Positions 718 through 29,028 of a stretch of 32,000 bases of DNA are shown here, in pieces (position 1 is the stretch's first letter; each line of letters begins with the position of its first letter). The DNA comes from an archaeon GW2011_AR10 (lineage in GTDB: Archaea; Iainarchaeota; Iainarchaeia; Iainarchaeales; GW2011-AR10), in contig CP010424.1 in assembly GCA_000830275.1 (NCBI GenBank), positions 1,170,001 to 1,202,000 on the forward strand. Reading direction: 5' to 3'. The notes under the pieces are model-generated. The model made no database searches, was not told where the DNA came from, and saw nothing but the letters and a program-made list of their open reading frames with translations. Both the position numbers and the translations under genes were made by a program.

Positions 718-733
718 TCAATCCCCTATTAAT

Positions 734-826
734 TATAGCAGGCGACATTAATTTTTGAACATTTATTGTCGCCTGATAGATAGCAAATGACCTTGTTTTG
801 TTCAAATATTTTTGTCATTTGCTATA
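734..826. repeat. Family-1 hairpin modules, cluster A (2 modules)
   Basis: Module 1 (734-780): TATAGCAGGCGACA, 19-nt loop, TGTCGCCTGATAGA. Module 2 (781-826): TAGCAAATGAC, 22-nt loop, GTCATTTGCTATA. Loops carry TTGAACA / TGTTCAA. Confidence 0.85.
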
Positions 827-846
827 TATTAATATAAAAAAGAATT

Positions 847-900
847 AATATTTGGAGTATTGGGGAGTTTGGTAATATTTGGAGTATTTGGGTTTTTGGT
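847..900. repeat. Tandem duplication of a 27-bp unit (2 copies)
   Basis: AATATTTGGAGTATTGGGGAGTTTGGT (847-873) is followed directly by AATATTTGGAGTATTTGGGTTTTTGGT (874-900). Confidence 0.8.
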
Positions 901-920
901 AACGGCTGGTAAGCTGCATG

Positions 921-1244
921 CTATATTGGCATGTTGAAGAACTTTAGTATGAGTATTGCCCCTACTCCTGCCAAACCGAAGATGGCAGAAATTACTATTG
1001 TTGGAATAAGCTGCAGCTCAATTTTTAACACGAACACCATCACTGCCCAAGCGATAAGGCCGAGCGCTGAGTTAACAATTATTTTTTTGAGGTGAATGAG
1101 AATAAGTACCGCTGCAATAATTAGAATGAAGCCGATCACGAGAATCTGCCAGTTTCCCGCGAGCTGCTGTGTTATGTCGTTTGCTGTCTGGGAAGCGCCT
1201 TCAATTGCGCTGCCTTCCAGCGCCTGCAAAAACAAACCCTGCAT
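921..1244 (-). CDS. Small integral membrane protein (hypothetical)
   Basis: 107-aa ORF with two or three long hydrophobic segments (ILVIGFILIIAAVLILI, GLIAWAVMVFVL, IPTIVISAIFGLAGVGAILIL). I recognise no family. Confidence 0.5.
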   Translation of the reverse strand: MQGLFLQALEGSAIEGASQTANDITQQLAGNWQILVIGFILIIAAVLILIHLKKIIVNSALGLIAWAVMVFVLKIELQLIPTIVISAIFGLAGVGAILILKFFNMPI

Positions 1245-1262
1245 AAGTATGCCTTTTTTATT

Positions 1263-1517
1263 CTATGGCGAATGACATTAATAATTAAACATTTATTGCT
1301 CATTTGCTATATGTAAAAGACAATATATTTTGCCATATGTAAAAGACAATTATTTTCCAAACAAGAATGTCTTTTACTATATTATATTAAGCTTATCAAT
1401 ATTATACTGTTTTGGTTTTATATTTATAGCAAAACGCTTAAGTAATTGAACATTGAATTGCGTTTTGCATCTAGCAACCAGCAGCATAAAGTTCAAAAAT
1501 ATAAGCTGTTTGCTATA
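1263..1517. repeat. Family-1 hairpin modules, cluster B (about 4 modules)
   Basis: Modules at about 1263-1311, 1336-1381 (GTAAAAGACAAT / ATGTCTTTTAC), 1425-1470 (GCAAAACGC / GCGTTTTGC) and 1472-1517 (GCAACCAGC / GCTGTTTGC). Positions 1425-1517 nearly duplicate 6621-6713. Confidence 0.85.
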
Positions 1518-1534
1518 CTTCAATAGGTGAGTTT

Positions 1535-2173
1535 GTGGTTCAGGGTTTTTCAGAGGAACAGAAAAGGATTGCCGTTAGCCTGCTTCACGGCCCGAAAACA
1601 AGCGAGGAGCTAAACAAGCAGCTCAACATTGCATTCAACGAGCTCAACAAAGAGTTAAACGCCATGCTTAAACTGAAAGTAATCACTAAAAGCGGTTACC
1701 CTCTCCGTTACTCGCTGAAGCCCGAAATTGAGAAAGAGGTCAGGCGCAGAAAGGACCTCTCAGAGGAAGATGACTTCAGGCTGAGAGTAAGAGCCATCGT
1801 TGACGTTCAGACAATTGAAGAGGCACTAGCAAAAAAGTCTTTGGACGAGGTTGAAAAAGCCCTGAGAAAAGACAAGGACTTCACTATTTATGACATAACA
1901 AAGGCAGAGCCAATACAGCAGGGAGAGCACTTCACAAGCTACATGGAGGCAGACCTATCGGTTAAGGACTTCAAGGCACTTGTAAAGCTAATGTACTTTT
2001 ACGGGCCCACCACAATCGAGGTTATCAGGCCAAAGAAACTAGAGTTAAGCCTGGATGACTTGCAGGAAGGCCTCATGGAAATGGCTGAAATGATTCAGGC
2101 ATACAACTATCACATCCTTAAAATGATGAGCAAAAAGGAACTCGAGGATTTCCAGAAAAAGCTCTTCTCTTAA
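1535..2173 (+). CDS. Hypothetical protein with an N-terminal winged-helix-like segment
   Basis: 212-aa ORF with a GTG start 4 nt after AGGTGA. The N-terminus QKRIAVSLLHGPKTSEELNKQL...LKVITKSGYPLRYSL looks wHTH-like. The rest is unrecognised. Confidence 0.55.
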   Translation: MVQGFSEEQKRIAVSLLHGPKTSEELNKQLNIAFNELNKELNAMLKLKVITKSGYPLRYSLKPEIEKEVRRRKDLSEEDDFRLRVRAIVDVQTIEEALAKKSLDEVEKALRKDKDFTIYDITKAEPIQQGEHFTSYMEADLSVKDFKALVKLMYFYGPTTIEVIRPKKLELSLDDLQEGLMEMAEMIQAYNYHILKMMSKKELEDFQKKLFS

Positions 2174-2187
2174 GCTGTGTTAAGCCA

Positions 2188-2295
2188 GAGCTTTACCAAA
2201 ACGTGCTTTTCGGCAAAAACCTTTTAAGAAAAGGTTTACCAAAAAGAGCTTTTCGGCAAAAAACGAAAAAACTGCCTTCTTTTAAAGCCTTCGAT
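2188..2295. repeat. Family-2 short-hairpin concatemer, copy H
   Basis: GCTTTTCGGCAAAAACCTTTTAAGAAAAGGTTTACCAAAAAGAGCTTTTCGGCAAAAAAC... contains the AAACCTTTT-AAG-AAAAGGTTT hairpin and a repeated GCTTTTCGGCAAAAA unit. Confidence 0.8.
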
Positions 2296-2423
2296 GGATT
2301 AGTTGCTATTGGAGTTGCCGAAAAAAGCCATTGGGTCAATTCGTTCAATGTCGAAGCGCAATTCAACAATTTCCATAGTCTTTCCTTTGGAATTTGGCCT
2401 CAAATCGCCCAATTCTCAAGGAA

Positions 2424-2441
2424 AACGAAAAGTATTTAAAT
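2424..2441 (+). promoter_or_regulatory. Candidate BRE/TATA promoter of the S-layer gene
   Basis: AACGAAAAG followed by TATTTAAAT, about 105 nt upstream of ATG 2546. This implies a long 5' UTR ending in the SD GAGGTGA at 2531-2537. Confidence 0.5.
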
Positions 2442-2545
2442 GGCGTTGTGGATTCAATATTAGAGCCTTTGACCTGCGTCTCACTTTTGTATGGTAAGAC
2501 CTGGTTGGGCAGACTCTTGATTAGATCAATGAGGTGACCTAAAAG

Positions 2546-5567: not shown

Positions 5568-5621
5568 CGGCCCCTAGAGTTAAGACTGCTTTTTTTAATT
5601 TGTTTGCGGGAAATTGTTCTT

Positions 5622-6230
5622 ATGGAAAAAAAACAGGAATTTTTCATTGCAGTAATCGCGCTTTTCCTTATTTCATTATCCTTTTTTGTAATATTGTCCG
5701 AGTTCTCCCAGGAGTTCAAGTACTCTGTTTCAAGGGACGGCGTTGAGTTTGTTTCAAATGAAGCGCCGCCAGGAGAACTAATGCAGGGCTTGTCTGAAAA
5801 GAGCTCATTTATTGTGGTTTCAGAATTCAGGCCTGGCACCGGGACAACCACGGTAATGGCTGAACCGCTTACAATGTTCAATTCGGTTTTGGTTTCGCTT
5901 GGCAAAAATGTTGTAACAATTGCAAAGGAAACTGATGCAACAGGAAAAATCACTGCCTGCCAGACAAACGATGGCAACGTGCTGGAAAACAGGCGCATTA
6001 CAGTAGAGGAATGCAGCCCGCTCTTAAGCGATTCTTCTAGGGCACGCATAATTGTTGGTTTTCCATCCAATTCTGGCAGTTCACTAGTAATAGTTTCCTC
6101 CGGCCTTGTGGAAATCCAGCCTGCTTCGCTTGAAGAGGTAACCAATGTGTCCTTCCTTGCACTGCAAGCAATGTACTCTGACAGCAGGGAAATACTGGAG
6201 CAAATTAACCGGGTGATTGGCCAGGTATAA
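5622..6230 (+). CDS. Membrane-anchored hypothetical protein
   Basis: ORF track 5604-6230; the first ATG is at 5622 (MEKKQEFFIAVIALFLISLSFFVIL = N-terminal TM anchor). Preferred over the overlapping antisense ORF 5369-6145. Confidence 0.5.
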   Translation: MEKKQEFFIAVIALFLISLSFFVILSEFSQEFKYSVSRDGVEFVSNEAPPGELMQGLSEKSSFIVVSEFRPGTGTTTVMAEPLTMFNSVLVSLGKNVVTIAKETDATGKITACQTNDGNVLENRRITVEECSPLLSDSSRARIIVGFPSNSGSSLVIVSSGLVEIQPASLEEVTNVSFLALQAMYSDSREILEQINRVIGQV

Positions 6231-6356: not shown

Positions 6357-6436
6357 CAGCCTTTTAGGAAAAGGCTGGCGAAAAAAAGCCTACGGCAACA
6401 GCCTTTTAAAAAAAGCCCGTCGAAAATGCGCCTTCT
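6357..6436. repeat. Family-2 short-hairpin concatemer, copy I
   Basis: CAGCCTTTT-AGG-AAAAGGCTG, then GCC-TAC-GGC, then a second AGCCTTTTAAAAAAAGC unit. A TATA-like CTTTATATAAATAA lies at 6333-6346 just upstream. Confidence 0.75.
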
Positions 6437-6541
6437 GCTGGTTGTTTCTGGTTTCTCTCGCTTCTCTCGTCCCTTAGCTGGTTTTTCCTTCAATAAGCCG
6501 AATTCAAACAGTTAATTCCACTGTTTTTAAGCAGTGCGACG

Positions 6542-6826
6542 CTATAGTATATGGCAAAATGCTTTTGTGTTTGAACAAATAGCGAATGACTTTAATAATG
6601 GTAAAAAGCAAGTCATTCGCTATAGCAAAACGCTTAAGTAATTGAACATTGAATTGCGTTTTGCATCTAGCAAACAGCAGTATACAGTTCAAAAATATTG
6701 GCTGTTTGCTATAGTCGCAAAAGACATTAAGAAATTACCGAAACTAATGTCTTTTGCTAAAAAAATTGCATTTTGCATTTAGCAAACAGCAAATTAAATT
6801 TTCAAGAATCAAAGCTGTTTGCTATA
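6542..6826. repeat. Family-1 composite element, copy C (about 285 bp, 6-7 modules)
   Basis: Modules at 6580-6624 (GCGAATGAC/GTCATTCGC), 6621-6666 (GCAAAACGC/GCGTTTTGC), 6668-6713 (GCAAACAGC/GCTGTTTGC), 6714-6759 (GCAAAAGACAT/ATGTCTTTTGC) and 6780-6826 (GCAAACAGC/GCTGTTTGC), plus half-modules. Nearly identical to 26007-26283. Confidence 0.9.
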
Positions 6827-8185
6827 ATGTTGGCAAGCAAAAAAAATTTTGGGCTGGTTGTTTTAATGGCATTCAAAGAACAAAATTTGGGTGTTTTTGG
6901 TTTTTTCAAGTTTTTTTTTGTACTAATAATTTTTGCAGCTATTTTTTTGTTTGTCTTTTTTAACCCCCAGTATGCCAGATGGTACTATGTGTTAGTGGCT
7001 TCAATTGGCTTGTACATTGCGGTCTTCTATGTTCTAACTAATCGTTTGGAATCCGCGGTTTTTCCGCCTGCACTAAAAAAATTTCCCACTGTAACAGTAC
7101 TAATTCCCAGTTATAATGGTGGCGCAACTTTGCAGCGTTGCCTGGAATCTGTTTTGAGCTTTAATTACTCCCGTTCATTTGAGGTAATAGTAATTGATGA
7201 TGCAAGTACGGACAATACTTCTGAAATTCTTAAGTCCTTTCCGCAAGTTAAAGTCATTCGTCATCAAAAAAACCTTGGGAAAGCCAAGGGGCTGAACAAA
7301 GCCATCGGAAAAATAAAAAGCGAGCTCGTTGTCTGCGTGGATTCTGACACCTATCCAAATCCAAATGTTTTGCTGGATTGCGTGCCGCATTTTTACCATG
7401 GCACAAGAGTGGGTGCGGTTGCTCCATTTATTACTGTGGCCAGCACAAAAACATTCATCCAAAAAATGCAAGAAATTGAATACTATTCTGGCTTTGGTTT
7501 TTATTCAAAGGTTGCTGCAATGCTGGATGGGTTATATGTTACGCCAGGCCCCCTCAGTGTTTTCAAGCGCAGTGCACTTTTGGAGATTAAAGGGTTTGAT
7601 GAGGACAACCTCACTGAAGACATGGAAATTGCGCTTCGATTGCATGATTATGGTTATTCGCTTGCCTACTCGCCAACACAGGTGCCTACAGAGGTACCGG
7701 CTACTGTAAGAGGGTTTTATCGCCAGCGCCTCAGATGGTACCGCGGAACAATCTTCAACATTTTGAAATACAAAAAAATGTTTTTTAGCAGTCGCTTTAA
7801 TGAGTTTGGGAAGTTTTTCTTCCCAGCGCTGACAGTTTTTGTGGTTACTACTTTTTTGTCGTTTATAGTTATCTGGGGTTTAATATTTTTCAATATTTTT
7901 CAAGTCCTCCAGATATTTTTCTTGTCCCTGCTTTTCGGGCAATCACAATTGTCTCTGTCCTTTTTGGGGAATATTACTGTCAGCTCGCTGTGGGTTTTTA
8001 TAGGTTTGGCAGTACTGCTGTGGTACGTGTTTTTTGCGGAGAGCATTTCAATGTTGAGCATTAAAAAATCGGCGCAAATGGCCCTGCCTGCTATTGCAAC
8101 CATTTTCTTATACCCCCTTATAATTTCTTTTATTTACACTGTCAGCCTTTTTAAGGAACTAAACGCATCCAAGAGGGCGTGGTAA
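6827..8185 (+). CDS. Family-2 glycosyltransferase, processive beta-glycan synthase type (PgaC/IcaA/NodC-like)
   Basis: Motifs VIVIDDASTDNT, VCVDSDT, TEDMEIALRL and QRLRWYRG (the Q-x-x-R-W signature), with N- and C-terminal TM helices. The first ATG at 6827 (MLASKKNF) is chosen because the track start at 6773 lies inside the repeat. Confidence 0.8.
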   Translation: MLASKKNFGLVVLMAFKEQNLGVFGFFKFFFVLIIFAAIFLFVFFNPQYARWYYVLVASIGLYIAVFYVLTNRLESAVFPPALKKFPTVTVLIPSYNGGATLQRCLESVLSFNYSRSFEVIVIDDASTDNTSEILKSFPQVKVIRHQKNLGKAKGLNKAIGKIKSELVVCVDSDTYPNPNVLLDCVPHFYHGTRVGAVAPFITVASTKTFIQKMQEIEYYSGFGFYSKVAAMLDGLYVTPGPLSVFKRSALLEIKGFDEDNLTEDMEIALRLHDYGYSLAYSPTQVPTEVPATVRGFYRQRLRWYRGTIFNILKYKKMFFSSRFNEFGKFFFPALTVFVVTTFLSFIVIWGLIFFNIFQVLQIFFLSLLFGQSQLSLSFLGNITVSSLWVFIGLAVLLWYVFFAESISMLSIKKSAQMALPAIATIFLYPLIISFIYTVSLFKELNASKRAW

Positions 8186-8859
8186 CCTTGAATCGTTATC
8201 TGCTTGCTGGTTTGATTACTCTCGCAATATTGGGGGTTGTTTTTGGGGCGGTCCTGCTTTTAGATGACTGGCGGGTTTCAGGCATAAACAAAGACCTTGA
8301 AGATTTGAGCATTCAATCAGAGTCCAACAGAGTGCTTTTCTTTTATAACCAAGTTTTTGATCCCGCCGAAAACCCGCGGTTCTGTGAACTAGCCAACTCG
8401 AGCGCTACTCTCCGCTCCAACCAAGGAGACCTGCTTTTTGCAAAACTCGAAAACTATGAAGGCGCCAGTTTCTTTGGCAGTTACAGAATTCTGCGGCAAA
8501 AATACCTGCTTAACCGCATTGAACTGTGGCTTTTTACAACGCTTCAAAACAAAACCTGTGGAAGCAATTTTGTGCCGGTCTTGTTTTTTTATGAATCTAC
8601 TGTTGATTGCCCGGAATGTTTAGTGCAGGGAAACATTTTGGAAGAGCTCCGAAACCAATGCCCAAATGTAAAGATTTTTGCTTTGTCCGTAGATGAAGAA
8701 ATAGATTTAGTGCCTTTAATTCAGTCCCAGTTCAATGTTTCGACTGTTCCTTCCTTGGTTGTGGACAACCAATTTGTTTTTGAATCCTTAACCACTAAAG
8801 AAGAAATCTTAAGAAATATTAAATGTGAAGAAGTCATAGCGAAACGAATAGTTGTTTGA
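8179..8859 (+). CDS. Membrane-anchored thioredoxin-fold protein (CPEC motif)
   Basis: 226 aa. N-terminal TM LLAGLITLAILGVVFGAVLLL. VLFFYESTVDCPECLVQ...STVPSLVV matches a CxxC thioredoxin/glutaredoxin-like layout. Overlaps the GT2 stop by 7 nt. Confidence 0.55.
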   Translation: MVTLNRYLLAGLITLAILGVVFGAVLLLDDWRVSGINKDLEDLSIQSESNRVLFFYNQVFDPAENPRFCELANSSATLRSNQGDLLFAKLENYEGASFFGSYRILRQKYLLNRIELWLFTTLQNKTCGSNFVPVLFFYESTVDCPECLVQGNILEELRNQCPNVKIFALSVDEEIDLVPLIQSQFNVSTVPSLVVDNQFVFESLTTKEEILRNIKCEEVIAKRIVV

Positions 8860-8864
8860 CAAAT

Positions 8865-9005
8865 GGCGTTTTGCAACCAGCCAATAAAAGTTCAAGAATT
8901 AAAGCTGTTCGCTATATAGTAAAAGACATAAGTATTTACACAATAATTGTCTTTTACATATAGCAAGCGACAATAAATGTCTAAATATTAATGTCGCTCG
9001 CTATA
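8865..9005. repeat. Family-1 hairpin modules, cluster D (about 3 modules)
   Basis: Half-module GGCGTTTTGCAAC, then ...GCTGTTCGCTATA, then TAGTAAAAGACAT/GTCTTTTACATATA (8917-8962), then GCAAGCGACA/TGTCGCTCGC (8961-9005). Lies between convergent genes. Confidence 0.85.
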
Positions 9006-9011
9006 GACCAA

Positions 9012-13925: not shown

Positions 13926-14633
13926 CTATTTCTTTTCCCCTTGCCTGCCCTCTGCTTTTGGCTCGGCCTTCTTTTCCCCGGCTTTCGCTTCCTCTCCACT
14001 CTTCTTCTTTTCTCCCTTTGCTTCCTCAGCGCCCCCAGCCTTCTCTTCCTCTTCCTTTGTTTCAGCCTTTGTTACCTTAATCTTCCTAGGCTTTGAGCCA
14101 ATTGACTTAACATCGGTGTGAACAACAACATCCAAACCAAGGGGCATTCTTGCATTTGCCCTAAGCAACGCGGTTTTAGCGGCTTCAATGTTGGCTTCAT
14201 CCACCAGCACGCTCATCATTTTCTGTCCCGGCCTAACCCTAACGGCTCTTCCAATTACTTTTCCGAAAGAGTGGCTCATTCCAGTGCTGATTCTGTCAGC
14301 TCCAGCTCCCTGAGCCTGCTTGTTTTCCCTCAGCAGCTGGTGGGGGTAAACCCTGATTTTCATGAAGTAGCCGTCCTTACCAAAATTGTTATGTAGAAAT
14401 CTGTTGATTGCTATTCTGCTTGACTCAATTGCGTTGTCCCTTACCTGCACTTTTTCTTTTGCAACAAGGTCAAGGATGTGAGAGAACTCTTTTAACGGGT
14501 TACCCATGTTGAACTGCCTTGTCTTAAGGCCCGGAGCAGCGCCTACATAATTCTTTCTATGCACCTTGACAGCGAGCCTCGTGTATGCCCTGTCCTTGGT
14601 TGAACTATAGCAGTGCCCTGGCCTTAAACCCAT
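13926..14633 (-). CDS. rpl10e: Ribosomal protein uL16 (L10e) with a ~50-aa Lys/Glu/Ala-rich C-terminal tail
   Basis: N-terminus MGLRPGHCYS...AYTR...GAAPGLKTRQFNMGN is typical of L10e. The tail is KAETKEEEEKAGGAEEAKGEKKKSGEEAKAGEKKAEPKAEGRQGEKK. Confidence 0.9.
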   Translation of the reverse strand: MGLRPGHCYSSTKDRAYTRLAVKVHRKNYVGAAPGLKTRQFNMGNPLKEFSHILDLVAKEKVQVRDNAIESSRIAINRFLHNNFGKDGYFMKIRVYPHQLLRENKQAQGAGADRISTGMSHSFGKVIGRAVRVRPGQKMMSVLVDEANIEAAKTALLRANARMPLGLDVVVHTDVKSIGSKPRKIKVTKAETKEEEEKAGGAEEAKGEKKKSGEEAKAGEKKAEPKAEGRQGEKK

Positions 14634-14666
14634 TCAAATCACTGAAGCAATTAAACCCTAAAAAAT

Positions 14667-14758
14667 TATAGCAAAATGCTTGTGTGTTTGAACAAAAACT
14701 GCATTTTGCAACTAGCAAACAGCAAATTAATGCTCAAAAATCAAAGCTGTTTGCTGTA
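14667..14758. repeat. Family-1 hairpin modules, cluster E (2 modules)
   Basis: TATAGCAAAATGC/GCATTTTGCAAC (14667-14712) and TAGCAAACAGC/GCTGTTTGCTGTA (14713-14758). Lies immediately upstream of rpl10e. Confidence 0.85.
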
Positions 14759-14805
14759 GAGCAATCCTATAATACTCTTCAATTGCAATCATTTTTAAGG
14801 CTTTA

Positions 14806-15007
14806 GGTAAACCTTTTAGGAAAAGGTTTGCGAAAAAGTGCCTTCGGCCAAAACCTTTTAAGAAAAGGTTTATCAAAATGGGGCTGCGCCGAAAACCTTT
14901 TTAGAAACCCAAGCAAAATCATAGATTTTGCGGGCCTCGCAAAACCAAGGGTTTTGCAAGGAGTTTTATCAAAAAGTGCCTTCGGCTGAAAACTTTTAGG
15001 AAAACTT
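14806..15007. repeat. Family-2 short-hairpin concatemer, copy J (longest copy)
   Basis: Consecutive hairpins AAACCTTTT-AGG-AAAAGGTTT, GCC-TTC-GGC, AACCTTTT-AAG-AAAAGGTT, GGC-TGC-GCC, GCAAAATC-ATA-GATTTTGC, GCAAAACC-AAG-GGTTTTGC and GCC-TTC-GGC. Positions 14895-14995 align with 18775-18870. Confidence 0.85.
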
Positions 15008-15240
15008 TAACGTGTTACCCGCAGAAAACCACCATTAGGCAGGCGCCTGTAAAGAATGTAAGAGAGAGGGCTCCTTACTTTATCTGCCCTCACCATGCCG
15101 CCACTCCTTGTTCTAACATAGTAACTGCGCAAATTAATGGGGGCTGGCCTGCGCTGCGGCCTAAAATAGGGTTGTGCTGTAGGTCTGGCGAAAGGTTGGC
15201 CTCTCCTAACAGGCTTTCTCGGCAGCAAACGCAATGGCAT
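15007..15240 (-). CDS. Hyper-basic 77-aa ORF (Arg/Pro-rich); coding status uncertain, a structured RNA is an alternative
   Basis: MPLRLLPRKPVRRGQPFARPTAQPYFRPQRRPAP... There is no SD. A TATA-like TTTTATTAA lies about 25-30 nt upstream of the ATG on the minus strand, consistent with either a leaderless mRNA or an RNA 5' end. The segment is visibly more GC-rich than its flanks. Confidence 0.35.
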   Translation of the reverse strand: MPLRLLPRKPVRRGQPFARPTAQPYFRPQRRPAPINLRSYYVRTRSGGMVRADKVRSPLSYILYRRLPNGGFLRVTR

Positions 15241-15303
15241 ATGAAAAGAAAAAGTTCTTTGAAGTTAATAAAACTGATGGTACTAGAATACCTGCACCAA
15301 CTG

Positions 15304-15645
15304 TCAGCGAATCATTTTTTCTAAGCCTGCGTTCTGTGGTGCAAACGGAAACTGCATTTTTTCCGCGGAAGCAGTGCGCTTTTTCTCAAAAAAGGAGCGC
15401 AGTTCCTCCCAGAGTTCTTTTCCCTGCTTTTGTGAAAGCGTCTTGATTATTGTTGGTTCTGGCTGCGCGTATCTAACAAGTACAAAGTCGTTTTCTTTCA
15501 CTGCCTCGTTAAGGCTTGGGTGCACTAAAACAATAACCTGATTTTCGTCCCACATCTCGCACCGTGCCTGAACCGAATTGTCAGCTGAAACAATGCCTTT
15601 GTCTGAGGACTTCAACAGTTTAATGACTTTTCCAAGGTGGTACAT
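15304..15645 (-). CDS. Hypothetical protein
   Basis: 113-aa ORF with no recognisable motif. Confidence 0.45.
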   Translation of the reverse strand: MYHLGKVIKLLKSSDKGIVSADNSVQARCEMWDENQVIVLVHPSLNEAVKENDFVLVRYAQPEPTIIKTLSQKQGKELWEELRSFFEKKRTASAEKMQFPFAPQNAGLEKMIR

Positions 15646-16706: not shown

Positions 16707-16904
16707 TATAGCAAAATGCTTAAGTAATTGAACATTGAATTGCGTTTTGCATCTAGCAAACAGCAGTATACAGTTCAAAAATATTGGCTGTTTGCTATAG
16801 TCGCAAAAGACATTAAGAAATTACCAAAAATAATGTCTTTTGCTAAAAAAATTGCATTTTGCAACCAGCAAATTAATGCTCAAAAATCAAAGCTGTTTGC
16901 TGTA
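16707..16904. repeat. Family-1 composite element, copy F (deletion variant of C and G)
   Basis: Same module order as 6621-6826, with only a couple of substitutions over ~150 bp. It lacks the GCGAATGAC module. Its first module is a chimera (5' arm GCAAAATGC, 3' arm GCGTTTTGC). Confidence 0.9.
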
Positions 16905-16944
16905 GGTAAAAAGGTTTGCGTTGCATTTGGCTGCAAACGAAGAG

Positions 16945-17215: not shown

Positions 17216-17271
17216 CAGAAAACTTATTTAAGGGTACTATTGCTTTCTGAAGAGCTATTTTAACGGTTTTG

Positions 17272-18192
17272 ATGGAATGTTCCTGTATGAATGAGCAGGA
17301 ATGCGTGCTTTTGAAGACTTCTCCTGAAATATCCCTTAAAACCCATTACGTGAGAAGATACTTCACTGAAAAACTTGTTTCCAACATTAAAACTGTTTTG
17401 AGGCAAAACAAGCTCAGTGGCACTGAGGTCAGAAAAAAACCCGGCAGGCTGTTAATTTACTCTGAGAAAAAAAAGCTCCCGAAAATCGGCAAATTGATGG
17501 AAAACATTTTCGGCGTTACTTCAGTTGCGTTTGCCAACAAAATTGGTTCAGTTGAAAAAAGCGAAATAATTCTTGAAGCAGTAAAGCTAGCGGGGATGCA
17601 TTTTAGTGAAATGGACTCTTTTGCGGTCAGGGTTAAAAGGCACGGCACTCACCATTTCTCTTCAAAGCAGCTCGAGGAGGAAATAGGTTCAGCAATAAAC
17701 CAGAAAATTAACGGGTTAATTGTTGACTTGACTTCTCCAAGCAAAGAGCTGTTTGTTGAGGTCAAGGATCTTGAAACATTTTTTTACACTGAGGAAAGCC
17801 CTGCTGCAGGCGGGCTGCCTTTAGGCTGTGAAGGCAATGTTGCAGTTGAATTCCTTGGGAGAAAAGAGGAGCTGCTCGCAGCTTGGCTGATGATGAAGCG
17901 GGGCTGCAATGTTTTTCCGCTTGTGGAAAAGAAAACCAAAAAAATTGAATCACACATCAATAAGTTGAGGAAATGGAATTCTTTCAGGAAATTCAAGCTC
18001 ACAGAGTTGCAGGACAAGAAAGACTTGCTTGAAAAAAAAGATATTGCGGTAAAGGCAATAGTGAAGGCAGACACTGTTTTCTCACGAGAATTTGTTGCGG
18101 AGAAAAAAAGGCAGCCAGTGCCTGTCTTCTGGCCACTTGTTTTTTACCCTGAGGAATTGTTTGAACGCGATATAAAGAAGGTGCTAGGTTGA
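17272..18192 (+). CDS. ThiI-like THUMP-domain protein with a degenerate PP-loop domain
   Basis: LLKTSPEISLKTHYVRRYFTEKLVSNIKTVL (ThiI N-terminal style), a THUMP-like middle, then GGLPLGCEGNVAVEFLGRKEELLAAWLMMKRGCNVFPL, where the expected SGGxDS is replaced by LGRKEE. Short C-terminus. ATG at 17272. Confidence 0.6.
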   Translation: MECSCMNEQECVLLKTSPEISLKTHYVRRYFTEKLVSNIKTVLRQNKLSGTEVRKKPGRLLIYSEKKKLPKIGKLMENIFGVTSVAFANKIGSVEKSEIILEAVKLAGMHFSEMDSFAVRVKRHGTHHFSSKQLEEEIGSAINQKINGLIVDLTSPSKELFVEVKDLETFFYTEESPAAGGLPLGCEGNVAVEFLGRKEELLAAWLMMKRGCNVFPLVEKKTKKIESHINKLRKWNSFRKFKLTELQDKKDLLEKKDIAVKAIVKADTVFSREFVAEKKRQPVPVFWPLVFYPEELFERDIKKVLG

Positions 18193-18980
18193 TTAAAGGC
18201 GTTGTGTTTGATTTGGATGGCGTTATAGTCAACACTCCGGACATTTACTTTAAGACAATGAAGGAATATATTAGGGGGCACTCAGTCAAAGTAAAGGATG
18301 AGGATGTGTCCAAGCTAATTGGCTACTCGTTGAGGGACGAGCTAATGCTGATAAACCAGAAATATGGCCTCAATATTGAACTCTCTGAATTTGTTTCAGT
18401 TGTTCTCTCCAAGTCAAGGAAACTGATGGAAAAAGAGATGAAGGTCAATGATGGTTTTACTGAACTGCTTTCAGAACTGAAGGAAAACCGCTTCAAAACA
18501 GCTGTTGCCTCAAACAATGTTCCTTCAACAATTGATTTCATTCTGTCAAAGTACGGTTTCCTTGAGTCATTTGATGCAATTGTTGGAGCCGACGATGTGA
18601 AGCATGGAAAGCCCAGCCCTGAAATATACATTAAAGCAGTTGAAAAGTTGGGTTTGAAGAAAGAGGAGTGCATCGCAATTGAGGACACTTTAATAGGGTT
18701 AAAGGCAGTCAGTGCAGCTGGCCTTAAATGCATTGCTTTTCCAAACAAGTTCACTAACGGCCAAAACCTTTTAAGCAAACCCAAGCAAAATCATGGATTT
18801 TGCGGGTCTCGCAAAACCAAAGGTTTTGCAAGGAGGTTTGCGAAAAGTGGCCTTCGGCTAAAACCAAAGGTTTTACGAGGAGGTTTGCGAAAACGCAGCT
18901 CCGCCAAAAACCTTTTCGGAGCAGTTTTAACAATCGGGAGCCTCACTGAATTGAATTCAGGGGTAATAAGGGGGCTTTAA
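18189..18980 (+). CDS. HAD-superfamily hydrolase (beta-phosphoglucomutase/phosphatase-like, subfamily IA) carrying an in-frame repeat insertion near the C-terminus
   Basis: VVFDLDGVIVNT (motif I), VASNN (II), KHGKPSPEIY (III), IAIEDTLIGLKAVSAAG (IV). TTG start overlaps the upstream stop (TTGA). Residues ~193-240 are encoded by the family-2 repeat. Confidence 0.8.
   Translation: MIKGVVFDLDGVIVNTPDIYFKTMKEYIRGHSVKVKDEDVSKLIGYSLRDELMLINQKYGLNIELSEFVSVVLSKSRKLMEKEMKVNDGFTELLSELKENRFKTAVASNNVPSTIDFILSKYGFLESFDAIVGADDVKHGKPSPEIYIKAVEKLGLKKEECIAIEDTLIGLKAVSAAGLKCIAFPNKFTNGQNLLSKPKQNHGFCGSRKTKGFARRFAKSGLRLKPKVLRGGLRKRSSAKNLFGAVLTIGSLTELNSGVIRGL
18761..18916 (+). mobile_element. Family-2 repeat copy K inserted in frame within the HAD hydrolase CDS
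   Basis: Bounded by near-identical direct repeats CCAAAACCTTTT (18761-18772) and CCAAAAACCTTTT (18904-18916), whose ends are 144 bp apart. The interior aligns with intergenic copy J (GCAAAATCATGGATTTTGC, GCAAAACCAAAGGTTTTGC, GGCCTTCGGCT). Confidence 0.7.
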
Positions 18981-20207
18981 ATGAGGGTGGCGATTTTTTC
19001 TGACACTCACCTTGGCTTCAAAGCGTTTGGGCGAGAGCAAGAAAGCTTTGAGAATGCGGAGCAGGCATTTGGCATAGCGTTGGATAATAAAGCAGACGTA
19101 ATCCTGATTGCGGGCGACATATTCAATGAAGTAACTCCCTCAACCGATGTGCTGGTTGGTGCCTTTCAGCTGTTCAGCAAAGCGAAGACAAGCAAAAAGG
19201 ACATAAAAATAGGGGTTTCCTCGAAAAAGCAAGTGATAGAGGAAATAGTTGCAGGAATTCCAATAATCTTAATTCACGGAAACCACGAATTCAGGGGAAA
19301 AGACTACACTAACGTGCTGCACCTTTACAGCAAATCCGGTTTCGCTTTCTACCTTCACGCTGAAACAGCTGTGCTGGAAAAAGGAAACGAAAAGCTTGCA
19401 GTGCATGCTTTAGGCGGGGTGCCAGAGCAAAAAGCGCTGGATGCGCTAAAGCTTTGGAATCCAAAGCCAGTGGAAAGCGCAGTGAACATTCTCCTATTGC
19501 ACCAGAATTTCAAGGAGTTTTCCCCGGTTGAAGACGAAATGGTTGCAACCCTTTCCTTGGATGATTTGCCAAATGGCTTTGACTTGATTGCTTCAGGGCA
19601 TCTTCATTGGACGGTAAAGCAAAAGCTCGGCAAAACAACTTTTTTGCTTGCAGGAAGCACAATCTGCACGCAGATGAAGAAAGTAGAGCAGGAAAACAGG
19701 AAAGGCGTTCACTTGTTTGAAACTCAAGCAAAAACCATTGAATTCATTCCTTTGCCTGTGCAGAGAAACCTTTTCTACCATAAAATAAGCTTTGAAGAGG
19801 CCAAGCCAGAGCAAGTAATCCACAAAATTCATGAGGCAATAGAGAAAGACTTAAAAGAAGGAAATGCCTTGCCCCCGCTTATAAGGCTGAAACTGGTTGG
19901 CAACCTGTCCAAGGGCATTTCGCTTTCAGATATTGACTTAAAGGCTGTTGAGGAAAAATTTCGGGGAAAAGCCATTATGTCTGTTTCGAAGGAGTTTTCA
20001 ACAACCGCTTTCAAGAAAAAAATTGCGGAACTCAGGCAAATACAGCAGTCAAAGCAGTCAATTTCTTCAATTGGCTTAAGCATTCTTGAAAAAAACCTGA
20101 AGGAAACCGATTTCAATGACGCATTTGAAGTGAAGAGAATATTTGACTTGCTTGCAGAAGACGAAACAGACAAAGTCTCTGAAATTCTTTCAAGAAGGAA
20201 AAAATAA
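18981..20207 (+). CDS. mre11: DNA double-strand break repair nuclease Mre11
   Basis: Calcineurin-like phosphoesterase motifs: FSDTHLG, AGDIFN, IHGNHE, SGHLH. 408 aa. ATG immediately follows the HAD stop. Confidence 0.85.
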   Translation: MRVAIFSDTHLGFKAFGREQESFENAEQAFGIALDNKADVILIAGDIFNEVTPSTDVLVGAFQLFSKAKTSKKDIKIGVSSKKQVIEEIVAGIPIILIHGNHEFRGKDYTNVLHLYSKSGFAFYLHAETAVLEKGNEKLAVHALGGVPEQKALDALKLWNPKPVESAVNILLLHQNFKEFSPVEDEMVATLSLDDLPNGFDLIASGHLHWTVKQKLGKTTFLLAGSTICTQMKKVEQENRKGVHLFETQAKTIEFIPLPVQRNLFYHKISFEEAKPEQVIHKIHEAIEKDLKEGNALPPLIRLKLVGNLSKGISLSDIDLKAVEEKFRGKAIMSVSKEFSTTAFKKKIAELRQIQQSKQSISSIGLSILEKNLKETDFNDAFEVKRIFDLLAEDETDKVSEILSRRKK

Positions 20208-21669: not shown

Positions 21670-22827
21670 TTACGGCAAAAAATCCTTTGCCTTGATTTTC
21701 TTTGGAAGGTACTCATCCGCAACAAAGCTCAAGGATTTGTTTGCCAGGGCCTGCTGCTCTATCCTGATTTTTTCACTGAGTGCCTTTTTGAGCTGCCTCT
21801 GCCATTCACTGTTTTGAAACCAGGGGTACTCAAGCATTTCTTTGGCTCTCTTTATGTCGCCTTCCTTCATTCTCTCGGTTACATTTTTCAGCTCGTACGT
21901 TTCAACGTCATCCAGCGTCATTCCAATATATTTTGCACCAGGCACTGCAAGCAGGTCAGAGTGAGCTGCCAGAGCCATTGAACCCTGCTTTATAACGCTG
22001 TAAATATACCAGCCGTAAGGGTCGCCATCCGTAAACATGTAAACAGGAAGCTTTGCTTCCATGTGAAGCCTGTGAATAAGCCTTCTGGTGCCCCGTGCGG
22101 CCTGCCCCCCAGTGCTCACAAGGATTGCTCTGTTTTTCTTTGCGAAGTCTTCCTCCACAAGCCTCTCATACATTGCTTCGGTTTCAATTACAAGAACATA
22201 GTTTGCGTCCACCTTCAATATCTCAATTTCTTCAGGCTCAACCCTTGACATAATGCTCCAACCGCCCCGTCCAAGCTTCCCTGCATTGAAGGTGTCATTG
22301 TTGTGCTTTCTGTCCCTGAGTGTTATATCCCCATAGAGTGTTCCCTTTGGGTTTGCGTGCAGGTTCAGCTTTTCCCTGATTGAATTAACTGCATGCTCTA
22401 AATCTACAATTACTCCATCTGATTCTGTCTGCTCCTCAAAAGTGTTTTCCTTGCTACCCCCTATTGTGTGCTTTAACTCATAATATATTTCACGAATTGC
22501 AGCTGTCTTGTTTTCCTCAAGGTATTCGTGGGTTTTTGCTGAAACAATCATTGTCTGCATGAATTTCCTTGCGTGACCGATATTAAGGAAGTTCCTCGTG
22601 GTTGTTTTATCGCCTAGCGTTAAAAGCTTGTCTTTCTCATCGAACTCAACGTTGCCTCTGCCCCTCTGCTGTGTTACAAACTCTGGGTCCTTATGCTTGT
22701 TAATGTCGCCAACTATTTCTTCACCAATGCGCCTGATTTTTTGTGCAATAATCTTTGGGTCTTCTTTTTCCCTTAGCTTTTCACCTGCTGTTTTCTTTGA
22801 TTTTCTGGCGCTGTTTTTTGCTGGCAT
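21670..22827 (-). CDS. top6A: DNA topoisomerase VI subunit A (Spo11-like)
   Basis: Toprim block FTDGDPYGWYIY, winged-helix catalytic region REIYYELKH, 385 aa. Its start overlaps the top6B stop (TGATG). Confidence 0.9.
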   Translation of the reverse strand: MPAKNSARKSKKTAGEKLREKEDPKIIAQKIRRIGEEIVGDINKHKDPEFVTQQRGRGNVEFDEKDKLLTLGDKTTTRNFLNIGHARKFMQTMIVSAKTHEYLEENKTAAIREIYYELKHTIGGSKENTFEEQTESDGVIVDLEHAVNSIREKLNLHANPKGTLYGDITLRDRKHNNDTFNAGKLGRGGWSIMSRVEPEEIEILKVDANYVLVIETEAMYERLVEEDFAKKNRAILVSTGGQAARGTRRLIHRLHMEAKLPVYMFTDGDPYGWYIYSVIKQGSMALAAHSDLLAVPGAKYIGMTLDDVETYELKNVTERMKEGDIKRAKEMLEYPWFQNSEWQRQLKKALSEKIRIEQQALANKSLSFVADEYLPKKIKAKDFLP

Positions 22828-24563
22828 CAGTTCTCCTCCTCAGCTTCCGTTTTTTTCTTTCTTTTCTTCTCGTTTTTCTTTGTTTTTTCCATTGTTTCCT
22901 CAATTTCTTCCTTGACTTTCTCTTCAGCTTCTTCTTCAAGCCTCAGCTTTTCGAGGACAAGCTTTTCAAGGTTCTTCCTCAACTTTCCCTCGTTTTCCTT
23001 GGTAAGCTTATTCAGTGCAAAAGCAATTTCTGGAATGTACTTGTAAAAGATTTCCCTCTTCATTTGCTTTTCCTGTTCTCTTTTCTTTCCAGAAATGTAA
23101 ATCCCGGTTTTCCTCCCAGAATCCATTAAGGCAAGCCTGAGTTCCTCCATTATTTCCTCTTCATCGCTTATTGCCTGCTTTCCAGCAGAAGTGTAAGGGA
23201 TGTGAACGCTGATTAAGTTGACGAAAATGGTTAAGGGTGCATTCTCCAAGTCTTTTATGCCATAACGCTTCCAATCAATTGATTGCACTGCCTTCGTAAT
23301 GGCGCATCCTCCAGAGTCAAACAAAAGTGGCGCCCTGTTGGCAAACCTCATTACTTCAATTTTTCGTTCCGGCTCGAATACGTTGGTTTCCCCGCCTTCC
23401 TGTTCTTTTGTTTTCTGGTTTTGCTCTTCATTGCCTCTGCCGGCGTTTCCACCGAAAGCAATCGAAACCTCAACTTGGAATGGAAACCCCCCAGAGTAAA
23501 CCTGTGGCCTTCTTGTTACAACTGAAAGATATTCCGGCTGGACAATGCTCTGAAGGCTTTTATTGATGCGGTCCTCACCGATTGGCCTTAAACCATCAGT
23601 GCGAGGAGCAATGAAATTCATTTTCTTGAACATTTTAACTATTTCCTCTGCCTCATCCCATGAAAGCTGTTTGGGGTCTTTCCTCAAATCAAAGGAAACA
23701 TTCTTCCTTATTTCTTCAAGCGCCTTGTCCCCCATTCGGTCAAATTCTGTTTTTAGGAAACTGCTTGTTTGCCTTGAATCAGTGTACCTGCTCAAACTAA
23801 TTATTTCGTCAACTGTAACCCCTTTTGGGTGCGGTTTCATTTCAACGGGCTTTGATGGAATATCTTTGGCAGACCTGTCAAAATTTGTAGTGCTTTTGTC
23901 TGGTGCAATGAACTTGATTTTTGCGTGCGGGTTTGCGATTGCAGTTCTTCTCAGGTATTCAAGTGGTGCCTGCTCGGACTTCACGTATTTCACGCCCTTG
24001 AACCTTGCCTTAACCGCCAAGCCCTTGAACTCCTTGTTTAATTCCACAAGATTCGAAATTTTTGGCTGGTTAATTTTTGGGTCAATACTTATCTCAAGGC
24101 TCATTGGCTTGTTTTTCCCGGTTCCTGTTATGACCTTGACAGGTTTTCCTGTAGTAATCTGTGAAAGCATTGTGCAGCCTGATGCTCCAATGCCCTGTTG
24201 GCCGCGCATCTGCATCATTCTGTGAAACTTTGTTCCGGCAAGAAGCTGTCCGAGCGCTTTTCCAACTGTTTCCTTTGTCAGCCCAGGGCCATTGTCTTTA
24301 ACAGTGATCTCGTAGTATCCGTCTCCAAGTTCCTCAATCTGCACTTCAATATCCGGAAGAATCCTTGCTTCCTCGCAGGCATCCAAAGAATTTGTTACAT
24401 ATTCATGGACAATTGTTGTAAGGGTTTTGATTTTTCCAGTCAAGCCAAGCATCTGCATATTCTTTTTGAAGAACTCTGCAACAGAATGCTCTTTGAATTC
24501 CTTCGAGATTTCCTCAGCGCTGATAACCTTCTCTATTGCACTGGCTTTCTGTTTCTCTGCCAA
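22827..24563 (-). CDS. top6B: DNA topoisomerase VI subunit B (GHKL ATPase) with a Glu/Lys-rich C-terminal tail
   Basis: HEYVTNSLDA (N box), DNGPGL, GQQGIGASG. TTG start 5 nt after AGGTGAT. The tail is EEEAEEKVKEEIEETMEKTKKNEKKRKKKTEAEEEN. Confidence 0.9.
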   Translation of the reverse strand: MAEKQKASAIEKVISAEEISKEFKEHSVAEFFKKNMQMLGLTGKIKTLTTIVHEYVTNSLDACEEARILPDIEVQIEELGDGYYEITVKDNGPGLTKETVGKALGQLLAGTKFHRMMQMRGQQGIGASGCTMLSQITTGKPVKVITGTGKNKPMSLEISIDPKINQPKISNLVELNKEFKGLAVKARFKGVKYVKSEQAPLEYLRRTAIANPHAKIKFIAPDKSTTNFDRSAKDIPSKPVEMKPHPKGVTVDEIISLSRYTDSRQTSSFLKTEFDRMGDKALEEIRKNVSFDLRKDPKQLSWDEAEEIVKMFKKMNFIAPRTDGLRPIGEDRINKSLQSIVQPEYLSVVTRRPQVYSGGFPFQVEVSIAFGGNAGRGNEEQNQKTKEQEGGETNVFEPERKIEVMRFANRAPLLFDSGGCAITKAVQSIDWKRYGIKDLENAPLTIFVNLISVHIPYTSAGKQAISDEEEIMEELRLALMDSGRKTGIYISGKKREQEKQMKREIFYKYIPEIAFALNKLTKENEGKLRKNLEKLVLEKLRLEEEAEEKVKEEIEETMEKTKKNEKKRKKKTEAEEEN

Positions 24564-25956: not shown

Positions 25957-26006
25957 TTACAAATAAATGAAAGAAACAGGTAATTAACTTTTCTTTTCAC
26001 AGAATA

Positions 26007-26283
26007 TATAGCAAAACGCTTATGTATTTGAACAAATAGCGAATGACTTTAATAATGGTAGAAAACAAGTCATTCGCTATAGCAAAACGCTTAAGTAATT
26101 GAACATTGAAACTGCGTTTTGCATCTAGCAAACAGCAGTATAAAGTTCAAAAATATTGGCTGTTTGCTATAGTCGCAAAAGACATTAAGAAATTACCAAA
26201 ACTAATGTCTTTTGCTAAAAAACTGCATTGCAACCAGCAACAGCAAATTAAATTGTCAAAAAAAATTAAAGCTGTCTGCTGTA
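26007..26283. repeat. Family-1 composite element, copy G (about 277 bp)
   Basis: Collinear with 6542-6826. By eye there are only about half a dozen differences over the central ~190 bp. Lies between the aIF1A stop and the rio1 start. Confidence 0.9.
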
Positions 26284-26293
26284 GAACTAATGC

Positions 26294-27475: not shown

Positions 27476-28087
27476 ATGAAGCAAGAAAATAATCTGGCGT
27501 TTCAAATAATTTTTTTTCTATCTGTTTTGCTAATTATAGTTTCCTTGTTTCTTTTCCTAAGCGATAAGCCGCAGTTTTTTTCAGAAATGGTGGACGAGTA
27601 TGGCTTGCTGGGGCTGTTTATTGGGGCAATAATTGGCACTTCCACGATTTTGCTGCCTTTGCCAATTGATGTTGTTATAGCGCTTGTTGGGGCAGAACCA
27701 AGCATTGTAGGGTTAGAGGGTTCGCTTCCGAATTTGATAGTAATTGGATTGATTGCCGGGTTAGGCGCAGCAATAGGTGAAATGACTTCTTACTTGCTCG
27801 GGTTAATGGGAATGAAAGCAATTGAAAAAAACTTTGAAAGCGTGATTCTAAAAAAAATTGATGAAACAAGGGAAAGGCTGAACAAGAGCGGCATTTTTTT
27901 CATTTTCATTGCCTCTGCCACTCCAATTCCTTTCGATTTGGTTGGAATAGTGGCAGGCCTAATAAAGTACTCCCCGACAAAATTCTTCATAGGTGCCTTA
28001 ATAGGAAAAGTTTTTAGGTATGTTCTGCTTGCCTTCGCCGGTTTTTACGGAATAGGCGCCATTAAAGGAATCTTTTTTCTCCCCTAA
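27476..28087 (+). CDS. Polytopic membrane protein, DedA/YqaA (VTT/SNARE-associated) like
   Basis: About five hydrophobic helices. The LPLPIDVVIALVGA motif resembles the VTT-domain re-entrant loop. ATG at 27476. Confidence 0.5.
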   Translation: MKQENNLAFQIIFFLSVLLIIVSLFLFLSDKPQFFSEMVDEYGLLGLFIGAIIGTSTILLPLPIDVVIALVGAEPSIVGLEGSLPNLIVIGLIAGLGAAIGEMTSYLLGLMGMKAIEKNFESVILKKIDETRERLNKSGIFFIFIASATPIPFDLVGIVAGLIKYSPTKFFIGALIGKVFRYVLLAFAGFYGIGAIKGIFFLP

Positions 28088-28611: not shown

Positions 28612-29028
28612 ATGTTTGTGAAAAAAGAACAATTTATTGCTGTGTTTTTGGTGGTTTTTGCAGTTGCTTTATTGTTTCTTAGTGGTTGTTTGGAAAAGAC
28701 TTGTTTTAACCGTGCTGACTGTCCTTTAAGCGATTCCGAGTACATTCAAATCGCAAAAACAACTTCGGAAGCACAAGCATTCCTGCAAAAATATCCTGAT
28801 GCAAACATTGGGGTTGAGAGAACTGAATACTTGGCAGTTGACTTTATAAAAAATAAGTCAGGTGAAAGCACTATTGTTCCACCTTACTTGCGATTAAGAG
28901 TTTTTATAAACACTTCAACGAACAAGCCAGCGTCAGCTTTCATAGAATGTAACCTCACGGGTGACAACTATTCAAGAATAGACCAAGACATTGTTAATTA
29001 CATAAAAATAGAAAAATGTTTAGCATGA
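28612..29028 (+). CDS. Putative lipoprotein (hypothetical)
   Basis: Signal peptide with lipobox: FLVVFAVALLFLSGC. 138 aa. No family recognised. Confidence 0.5.
   Translation: MFVKKEQFIAVFLVVFAVALLFLSGCLEKTCFNRADCPLSDSEYIQIAKTTSEAQAFLQKYPDANIGVERTEYLAVDFIKNKSGESTIVPPYLRLRVFINTSTNKPASAFIECNLTGDNYSRIDQDIVNYIKIEKCLA

Follow-up and report, generated by a model that had tools for sequence, protein, structure and literature searches.

A dispersed hairpin-rich repeat within the reading frame of a HAD phosphatase gene of the archaeon GW2011_AR10

Why does a HAD-family phosphatase gene of the archaeon GW2011_AR10 encode 48 more residues than its orthologs do? The gene lies within the 32,000 nucleotides (nt) of contig CP010424.1 that we analysed (positions 1,170,001 to 1,202,000; hereafter, the window). 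A first-pass annotation of the window, made from the sequence alone, had proposed that a copy of a short repeat, family-2, sits in frame within this gene after HAD motif IV, that it adds about 48 codons in a clean insertion, and that the frame then resumes the HAD C-terminus. All three parts of this proposal agree with our results. The open reading frame (ORF) 18189..18980 reads through the repeat, and the peptide that had been quoted for the repeat is present exactly. We also think it quite likely that a full-length family-2 copy integrated in frame and that the product is a complete HAD enzyme with a basic, disordered loop.

The 48-residue segment is an insertion of a family-2 copy

The protein is identical to AJF60785.1 of archaeon GW2011_AR10 over all 263 residues. 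In a search of 5.8 billion proteins, we found five homologs at 50-56% identity (P0003-P0007), each with 215 amino acids, which is 263 minus 48. The sixth-closest homolog (P0008) is 42% identical and has 218 amino acids. When the proteins are aligned, the 48 extra residues (194-241) stand together as one block without gaps, and all six homologs lack them. The first-pass annotation had pointed out that the segment would have to be native if orthologs carried it, but no retrieved homolog has it (the closest is 56% identical). The insert is bounded by ...FPNKFTNGQN on one side and by LFGAVLTIGSLTELNSGVIRGL on the other (the LFGAVLTIGSL side), and both flanks align to the orthologs. If the 48 residues are deleted, then the stretch from FPN to SL, FPNKFTNGQNLFGAVLTIGSL, has 21 residues, as does the orthologous FPNQFAKSGSFAKADLVVESL. 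The net gain relative to the orthologs is 144 nt, or 48 codons, in frame and with no stop codon, and 18% of the sequence of AJF60785.1 is repeat-derived.

Synteny was checked for the two orthologs whose contigs were fetched, P0004 and P0007 (loci L004-L007). Both are positional orthologs: as in the window, the genes follow one another in the order THUMP protein, HAD protein, Mre11-like metallophosphoesterase, and CoA ligase, and then topoisomerase VI in L004. When we compared these related loci to the repeat with BLAST, we found no copy of family-2 in L004-L007.

The inserted DNA had been reported to align with an intergenic copy of the repeat, copy J, and this similarity is far beyond chance: BLAST aligns 14892-14963 (copy J) with 18763-18835 at 93% identity over 73 nt (E = 4e-23). 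Over the whole alignment, the identity to copy J is 79.5%, and the pair also appears in a self-comparison of the window as repeat family D9 (104 nt at 83%). At full length, the closest copy is copy K, which lies outside the window, some 6.3 kb left of its first base, and is 92.3% identical to the HAD copy over 142 nt, with one 1-nt gap. Another copy from this species, on a metagenome contig (L016), is 83.9% identical overall and 92% identical over the first 125 nt (E = 1.5e-47).

The insert is fixed across strains. The HAD gene is found base for base in three samples from the Joint Genome Institute (JGI), including contig Ga0209211_10000698, and the insert-bearing protein is recorded from 17 contigs that reach a length of 1,241,428 bp. 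We saw the insert in at least six independent assemblies. A strain from ENA (L098) that is 99.74% identical over 7.7 kb has the same insert, with 20 single-nucleotide polymorphisms (SNPs) in that region and none in the insert. In every strain sampled, the gene is full-length without a stop or a frameshift. A chimeric assembly, or truncation of the gene at the insertion, had been named as grounds for doubting the insertion. We find instead that many independent assemblies agree on the arrangement, the 1.24-Mb contig among them.

Two contigs were considered as truncated alleles and rejected. L008 (P0002) stops matching 100 nt before the insert, where unrelated sequence begins, and tells us nothing about the insertion. 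L097 (P0060; Ga0103681_1028515, 1-3063) looked like a gene that was truncated at the insertion, but it matches the window as far as 18904 and from there on is 100% identical to the flank of copy K (L102 1-1112), which it joins via the near-identical unit D2. The switch is inside this unit (window 18860-18904), where one base differs between the two copies. Either L097 is a chimera from assembly, or a real inversion has taken place between copies K and HAD, which are in inverted orientation about 25 kb apart. In neither case does L097 undermine the many intact assemblies of the HAD insert.

The composite element is 142-143 nt long and comprises AAAACCTTTT and a short linker, hairpin 1 (arms CCCAAGCAAAATC/GATTTTGCGGG), hairpin 2 (arms GCAAAACC/GGTTTTGC), and two units of 46-47 nt, which we call D1 and D2 in the HAD copy (Table 1). 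The 10-nt motif AAAACCTTTT starts every family-2 unit, and each of the five composite copies begins with it as well. All family-2 copies have the left end AAAACC in common. We placed the right end of the HAD copy at the point where it diverges from copy K, after ...CGCAGCTYCGCY at 18905. Each 46-47-nt unit closes with a GC-rich hairpin, with a cUUCGg-type tetraloop in D1 (GGCC-TTCG-GGCT at 18849-18859) and in several other units. The terminal hairpin of D2 is CAGCTCCG(C) in the HAD copy, and its counterpart in copy K is CAGC-TTC-GCTG. Tandem Repeats Finder describes the D1/D2 array as 2.1 copies with a period of 47.

The RNA of the element is predicted to be very stable. For 18745-18935, the minimum free energy is -62.9 kcal/mol (z = -4.08), and none of 200 shuffled sequences was as stable. 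Three hairpins are conserved among the copies, and in an RNAalifold analysis of three aligned copies, three pairs were kept through two-sided changes, two of them within conserved hairpins. A scan of the window with Rfam at the gathering thresholds gave no match for the element, and a tRNA scan found none. A scan for bacterial-type terminators flagged the element's hairpins on the opposite strand only, which is uninformative for an archaeon.

The first-pass annotation had also reported that the insert is bracketed by direct repeats. The positions of CCAAAACCTTTT and CCAAAAACCTTTT, the 144 nt between their ends, and the stop-free frame between them are all as described. However, the bracketing repeat is the element's own AAAACCTTTT start, and no match to CCAAAAACCTTTT was found in the right flank of copy L016 or of copy K, so it is not demonstrably a target-site duplication. 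We compared the first 30 nt of the element to the reverse complement of its last 30 nt and found no terminal inverted repeats; the best match, of 12 nt with 2 mismatches, is internal. No transposase was found among the ORFs of the window or the called genes of the flanking loci.

Table 1. Coordinates of the inserted element, its host operon, and the other family-2 copies
Feature	Location	Strand	Remarks
Full-length family-2 element in HAD gene	18763..18905	+	143 nt, sense orientation; from protein and DNA alignments
Left direct repeat CCAAAACCTTTT	18761..18772	+	Includes the element's own first 10 nt
Right direct repeat CCAAAAACCTTTT	18904..18916	+	Either microhomology (native HAD sequence) or the stub of a further, truncated unit
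Hairpin 1 (CCCAAGCAAAATC-ATG-GATTTTGC-GGG)	18780..18806	+	Most conserved module; stem invariant in five copies
Unit D1, 47 nt	18813..18859	+	Hairpins AAAACC-AAA-GGTTTT and GGCC-TTCG-GGCT
Unit D2, 46 nt	18860..18905	+	Identical to last unit of copy K except base 18901
Extra C	18776	+	HAD copy only: TTTTAAGCAAACCC, versus 7 nt in the other four copies
HAD host gene	18189..18980	+	ORF, 263 amino acids; subfamily HAD-IA (beta-phosphoglucomutase-like) phosphatase
THUMP/ThiI-ferredoxin-like gene, upstream	17269..18192	+	Stop overlaps HAD start; operon context
Mre11-like metallophosphoesterase gene, downstream	18981..20207	+	ATG directly 3' of HAD stop codon
Copy J, composite, intergenic	14888..15005	+	Hairpin modules and one unit
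Units C1 and C2, tandem, generic 42-nt	14809..14891	+	Directly upstream of copy J
Locus A, two family-2 units	2189..2267	+	Begins 16 nt after stop of ORF 1535..2173
Locus B, two family-2 units	6357..6439	+	127 nt after stop; downstream of ORF 5604..6230
L016/L014 copy, full-length composite	Outside window, ~25 nt after stop of membrane-protein ORF		Same orientation as gene
Copy K, full-length	Outside window, L102 1068-1213		Divergent intergenic region between cation ATPase gene and DNA primase small-subunit gene

The predicted protein and how it may have arisen

The host protein has HAD motifs I-IV (DxD, S/T, K, and E/D-D), which correspond in our alignments to D8/D10, S108, K141, and E165/D166. 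D8, D10, K141, E165, and D166 are invariant across these alignments. Together with a Rossmannoid core and a helical cap, these motifs place the protein in HAD-IA. Pfam's HAD_2 matches residues 5-183 (E = 2e-35), and the nearest solved structures by sequence (in PDB) are Thermotoga TM_1254 and beta-phosphoglucomutases. The names in its 90% cluster are "beta-phosphoglucomutase [archaeon GW2011_AR10]", "Candidatus Iainarchaeum sp.", and "Candidatus Diapherotrites archaeon".

We modelled the protein using AlphaFold2 with a 50-sequence alignment, which gave a mean predicted local distance difference test score (pLDDT) of 86.3 and a predicted TM-score (pTM) of 0.80. In blocks of 10 residues, the pLDDT is 88-98 for residues 1-190 (nearly all above 90) and 95-98 from residue 251. 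Residues 201-239 have a pLDDT below 50 and no secondary structure. In the model, the HAD core is kept and the insert emerges as a loop of low confidence that separates the last two strands of the core (the strand at 180-183 and the final strand at 247-248). According to Foldseek, the target-normalised TM-scores to beta-phosphoglucomutase, TM_1254, and HDHD1A are 0.75-0.82. The model suggests that the site of insertion is compatible with the HAD fold and that the insert is most likely a disordered surface loop. That the frame resumes a HAD C-terminus is apparent from the alignment of the downstream flank to the orthologs and from the last 20 residues, whose pLDDT is above 90.

The insert has 9 lysines, 7 arginines, and no acidic residues, and it moves the predicted isoelectric point (pI) of the protein from 6.2 to 9.6. 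The intergenic copy in L016 would encode a very similar peptide in the homologous frame, so the sequence of the insert is simply that which the repeat specifies. The peptide PKQNHGFCGSR belongs to the insert, and NLFGAVLTIGSLTELNSGVIR belongs to the read-through C-terminus.

We propose that family-2 is a non-autonomous, hairpin-rich repeat of about 142-143 nt that is present in multiple, almost all intergenic, copies in Candidatus Iainarchaeum (GW2011_AR10; Diapherotrites, DPANN), and that one full-length copy entered the 3' part of the HAD gene in the sense orientation. The integration site would encode the loop that joins the final pair of beta-strands in the Rossmann-like core. Adding 144 nt with an open frame would still give a full HAD enzyme, with the four catalytic motifs, the native C-terminus, and a Lys/Arg-rich segment of 48 residues, and translation into the adjoining mre11-like gene would not be interrupted. 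Few insertions into a gene leave that gene intact, and the HAD copy may have been retained as one of these. As to the mechanism of integration, we infer that recombination or a template switch took place at AAAACCTTTT, the 10-nt motif that the HAD junction also contains. We prefer this route to cut-and-paste transposition because there are no terminal inverted repeats, there is no target-site duplication at K or L016, the two other copies with unique flanks, and neither the window nor the called genes of the flanking loci revealed a transposase gene.

The distribution of the copies fits with selection against insertions in genes. In about 61 kb of AR10-like sequence, we found six family-2 loci, of which five are intergenic, and only the HAD copy is genic and in frame. 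About 81% of the window is coding, so genic copies appear to be counter-selected or avoided (P ~0.001 for at least 5 of 6 intergenic under random placement). In dinucleotide shuffles of the insert, the given frame is free of stops about 27% of the time; multiplying by 1/3 for the length, about 9% of insertions would keep the frame and contain no stop. If purifying selection acts as a filter, then a single in-frame survivor is the outcome to expect.

Several observations weigh against this account. The usual length of the element, 142-143 nt, is not a multiple of three, so at least one extra base is required, which a simple one-step insertion does not explain. The extra base may be C18776. In copy J, a TAG stands at the equivalent spot in the homologous frame, and judging from the sequences, C18776 is possibly a frame-restoring indel. 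No empty-site allele was found in the databases, and the nearest insert-free ortholog, at 56% identity, is too distant to pinpoint the junction or any target duplication. In the C-terminal "AD" motif, the AR10 protein has Val instead of the conserved Asp, which could hint at relaxed constraint. L097 indicates that rearranged molecules, or misassemblies, through the family-2 repeat do occur. Also, it is from the sequence that we infer both translation of the insert and continued activity of the enzyme that carries it.

The substitution in the "AD" motif would fit with a HAD gene that is functionally dead or dispensable, with the frame kept by luck or only to preserve the translational coupling to the mre11-like gene, whose ATG abuts the HAD stop codon. 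A chance of about 9% for a stop-free, in-frame outcome is not negligible, and with just 22 codons between the insertion and the stop, an intact C-terminus tells us little about how selection has acted since then. On the other hand, every catalytic motif residue is intact, the core is modelled at very high confidence, and the ORF is full-length with no stop or frameshift in all of the strains sampled, including a diverged strain that has amino-acid changes in the core but no disruption. We consider it unlikely that the gene is dead or dispensable. Another idea is that the loop has been co-opted, with its 16 Lys/Arg residues serving as a new surface for binding nucleic acids or a partner, which would be relevant to the THUMP and Mre11-like neighbours in the operon. 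The shift in the predicted pI and the operon neighbours, which act on RNA or DNA, would fit with this idea, as would the absence of SNPs from the insert of one diverged strain in which eight SNPs cluster 50-90 nt upstream. But with a strain divergence of 0.26%, the absence of SNPs from 144 nt is not meaningful. Also, the peptide has no predicted structure and is simply what the repeat would give on translation; in the homologous frame, the peptide of the intergenic copies is almost identical. We view a co-opted loop as very unlikely. A broader suggestion is that family-2 is not a transposon but an RNA-level structural module that spreads via its AAAACCTTTT unit boundary, through recombination or template switching, and that the copy in the HAD operon is doubly exapted, as an internal RNA structure that modulates mre11-like expression and as a basic nucleic-acid-binding loop on the phosphatase. 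The cUUCGg-type tetraloops, the hairpins with compensatory changes, and the usual position at mRNA ends suggest such a module, but we consider this explanation unlikely.

The first-pass annotation had raised the alternative that the segment is removed at the RNA level. Splicing of a bulge-helix-bulge (BHB) intron, or other processing of the mRNA, would then yield a normal HAD enzyme of 215 amino acids. The archaeal splicing endonuclease does process a few mRNAs, such as the crenarchaeal cbf5, and the segment is strongly structured and is exactly 144 nt, so that its excision would restore the length of the orthologs. However, in a relaxed scan of 18700-19000 for hBHBh' motifs (a central helix of 4 bp and 2 bp or more in the flanking helices), the 39 chance candidates included none with a spacing of 144 nt across the insert. 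Furthermore, both junctions are direct repeats, which cannot pair with each other; the same element is found in intergenic DNA, where splicing plays no role; and there is no match to Rfam. Our results do not support removal at the RNA level, and we consider it extremely unlikely. An intein is not expected, as 48 residues without predicted structure are too short for one. Finally, if the segment were native to the HAD gene and the intergenic copies were derived from it, or if the arrangement were an assembly chimera, then no insertion need have occurred. L097, in which the HAD insert runs into the sequence beside copy K, does illustrate that assemblers, or the cell, can switch between copies. 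But all of the retrieved homologs lack the segment, simpler 42-nt units are found in tandem arrays at several intergenic sites and would be hard to derive from a coding loop, and the insert was recovered in at least six independent assemblies (with the identical protein on 17 contigs, the longest being 1.24 Mb). We give practically no weight to a native origin or a chimera.

Operon, other copies, and nearby variation

The HAD gene starts with TTG (18189), which is overlapped by the stop codon of the THUMP gene, and its TAA is followed without a gap by the ATG of the mre11-like gene (18981). These three genes appear to be translationally coupled, so a polar effect of the structured insert, if there is any, would fall on the mre11-like gene. 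Further along the window, the topoisomerase VI subunit B (22827..24563) has 578 amino acids and no intein, while the subunit B from the relative (L004 14883-18173) has 1096 amino acids, with matches to intein and LAGLIDADG domains.

In the window, family-2 is found at four places: A, B, the C/J array, and the HAD copy. We searched for more copies in other sequence collections. Six-frame peptide queries against the 5.8 billion proteins returned only the HAD protein, or nothing; the second of these searches, with the copy-J peptide, missed even the HAD protein, so its sensitivity was low. A scan of genome contigs with the pattern AAAACCAARGGTTTTRCRAGGAG gave no matches, and a scan of genome contigs with the HAD alignment gave, among the matches listed, only distant and mostly bacterial HAD genes. 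A pattern scan of metagenome contigs (a collection that did not include the window's own contig) gave six loci, of which only L014 and L016 are real copies. A scan of viral contigs with the generic hairpin gave two matches, to the hairpin motif of about 21-30 nt alone.

At copy K, one assembly (L102 1068-1263) has an extra left-hairpin module of 53 nt relative to another (L103 1121-1263), which has a run of NN there. This suggests either variation in the copy number of the module or an assembly collapse.

The window also contains a second, unrelated family of repeats, which are intergenic and often lie beside gene starts (734-830, 1258-1520, 6548-6830, 8852-9007, 14667-14760, 16707-16905, and 26005-26284). 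Its arms resemble inverted repeats (TATAGCAAAAYGCTT...TTGAACA / TTCAAAAAT...GCTGTTTGCTATA), and its copies are 75-96% identical over up to 166 nt (D1, D3, D5, D7, and I19 in the window's repeat listing, where D1 is not the unit described above). This family looks more like a miniature inverted-repeat transposable element (MITE) than family-2 does. Between the family-2 array and ORF 15304..15645, the stretch 15000-15250 has no ORF and a G+C content of about 55%, as compared to 43% for the window. It may be an unannotated structured RNA; it had no match to Rfam at the gathering thresholds in the scan of the window, or at E ≤ 1 in a scan of 14600-15350.

We also noted differences between strains. 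In L098, 8 of the 20 SNPs are within 39 nt (18674-18712) in the HAD core, 50-90 nt upstream of the insert, and the protein changes are I164V, K172M, A173S, and S175N. This cluster looks like a short tract of recombination or gene conversion. Sample 3300025309 (L002) differs from the window at 14640-14657, 18022-18031, and 28058-28066: 18 nt are deleted upstream of the L16/L10e gene and 9 nt close to the end of the VTT-domain gene, and single-base indels at an A run split the THUMP gene call into 248 + 43 amino acids. An ENA contig from the same species (L099) loses synteny with the window just past ORF 28612..29028 (from about 13100 in L099; about 28.1-28.6 kb in the window). L099 continues with GARS, ferric reductase, and RNase HII, where the window has VTT, eIF, and RIO1 genes, so this is a rearrangement or a strain difference.

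Comparison with known repeats and introns

Like the BHB introns of archaea (such as in cbf5), the insert is a structured segment within an archaeal ORF and its length is a multiple of three, but the HAD junctions have no BHB motif, and its sequence is a dispersed repeat that is also intergenic. Another comparison is to prokaryotic MITEs, which have been reported from the archaea Sulfolobus, Halobacterium, and Haloquadratum; intragenic in-frame copies have been reported for ERIC, BOX, Coxiella QMITE1, and Anabaena MITEs (PMC10969869). Family-2 shares with MITEs its small size, its non-autonomous nature, its strong secondary structure, and an in-frame fusion with a host ORF. Unlike MITEs, it lacks terminal inverted repeats, and we identified no insertion sequence as its parent. 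A direct repeat of 11-12 nt flanks the HAD copy, but this is the element's own first motif, and L016 and K lack any duplication of the flanks.

Sequences like the repetitive extragenic palindromic (REP) elements have also been reported from archaea (PMC12306157). Family-2 resembles REPs and bacterial interspersed mosaic elements (BIMEs) in being made of short imperfect palindromes that are mainly extragenic, often lie just after stop codons, and cluster in composite arrays (A, B, and L016), and family-2 is probably transcribed within the ends of mRNAs. It differs from them in that its units are direct tandem repeats (with a period of 42 nt) rather than alternating in orientation, that they begin with AAAACCTTTT and have no consistent GTAG/CGTC at the hairpin bases, and that no REP-associated tyrosine transposase (RAYT) was seen in the sequence available. 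Also, REPs seldom overlap coding regions, while one family-2 copy lies within a coding frame.

The first-pass annotation had drawn a parallel to the Rickettsia palindromic elements (RPEs), whose in-frame insertion into genes adds a peptide at a position that is compatible with the fold (PMC10969869). We agree with this parallel, the closest that we know of, for the in-frame insertion of a structured repeat into one gene, with the caveat that we found just one in-frame copy, while RPEs are remarkable for how often they insert into genes. As with RPEs, the HAD insert is in frame and free of stops within a conserved, housekeeping-type gene, where it adds 48 amino acids in a predicted surface loop. 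Family-2 is also a dispersed, multicopy repeat with stable hairpins, and the insert is absent from orthologs. There are differences as well: the host is a DPANN archaeon, and across domains no homology to RPEs is expected; nearly half of 44 RPE copies are inside ORFs, versus one genic copy and five intergenic loci here; and family-2 is modular, with tandem units of 42-47 nt, while the RPE is a single palindrome.

To our knowledge, most descriptions of new protein segments that arose by the RPE-type route come from obligate intracellular bacteria. The HAD gene of AR10 suggests that this route also operates in a genome-reduced DPANN archaeon, where a selfish or structural repeat would be translated as a loop of a conserved enzyme. 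Our analysis also flags a public protein, AJF60785.1, which is annotated simply as a beta-phosphoglucomutase or HAD phosphatase, and it identifies a compact and well-defined family of repeats in Candidatus Iainarchaeum that mediates rearrangements at least at the level of the assembly, and possibly real ones. This is a single event of a known kind and is mechanistically unsurprising. Its value is not as a new principle but as a clean, testable example, from an under-studied lineage, of what the Rickettsia elements do.

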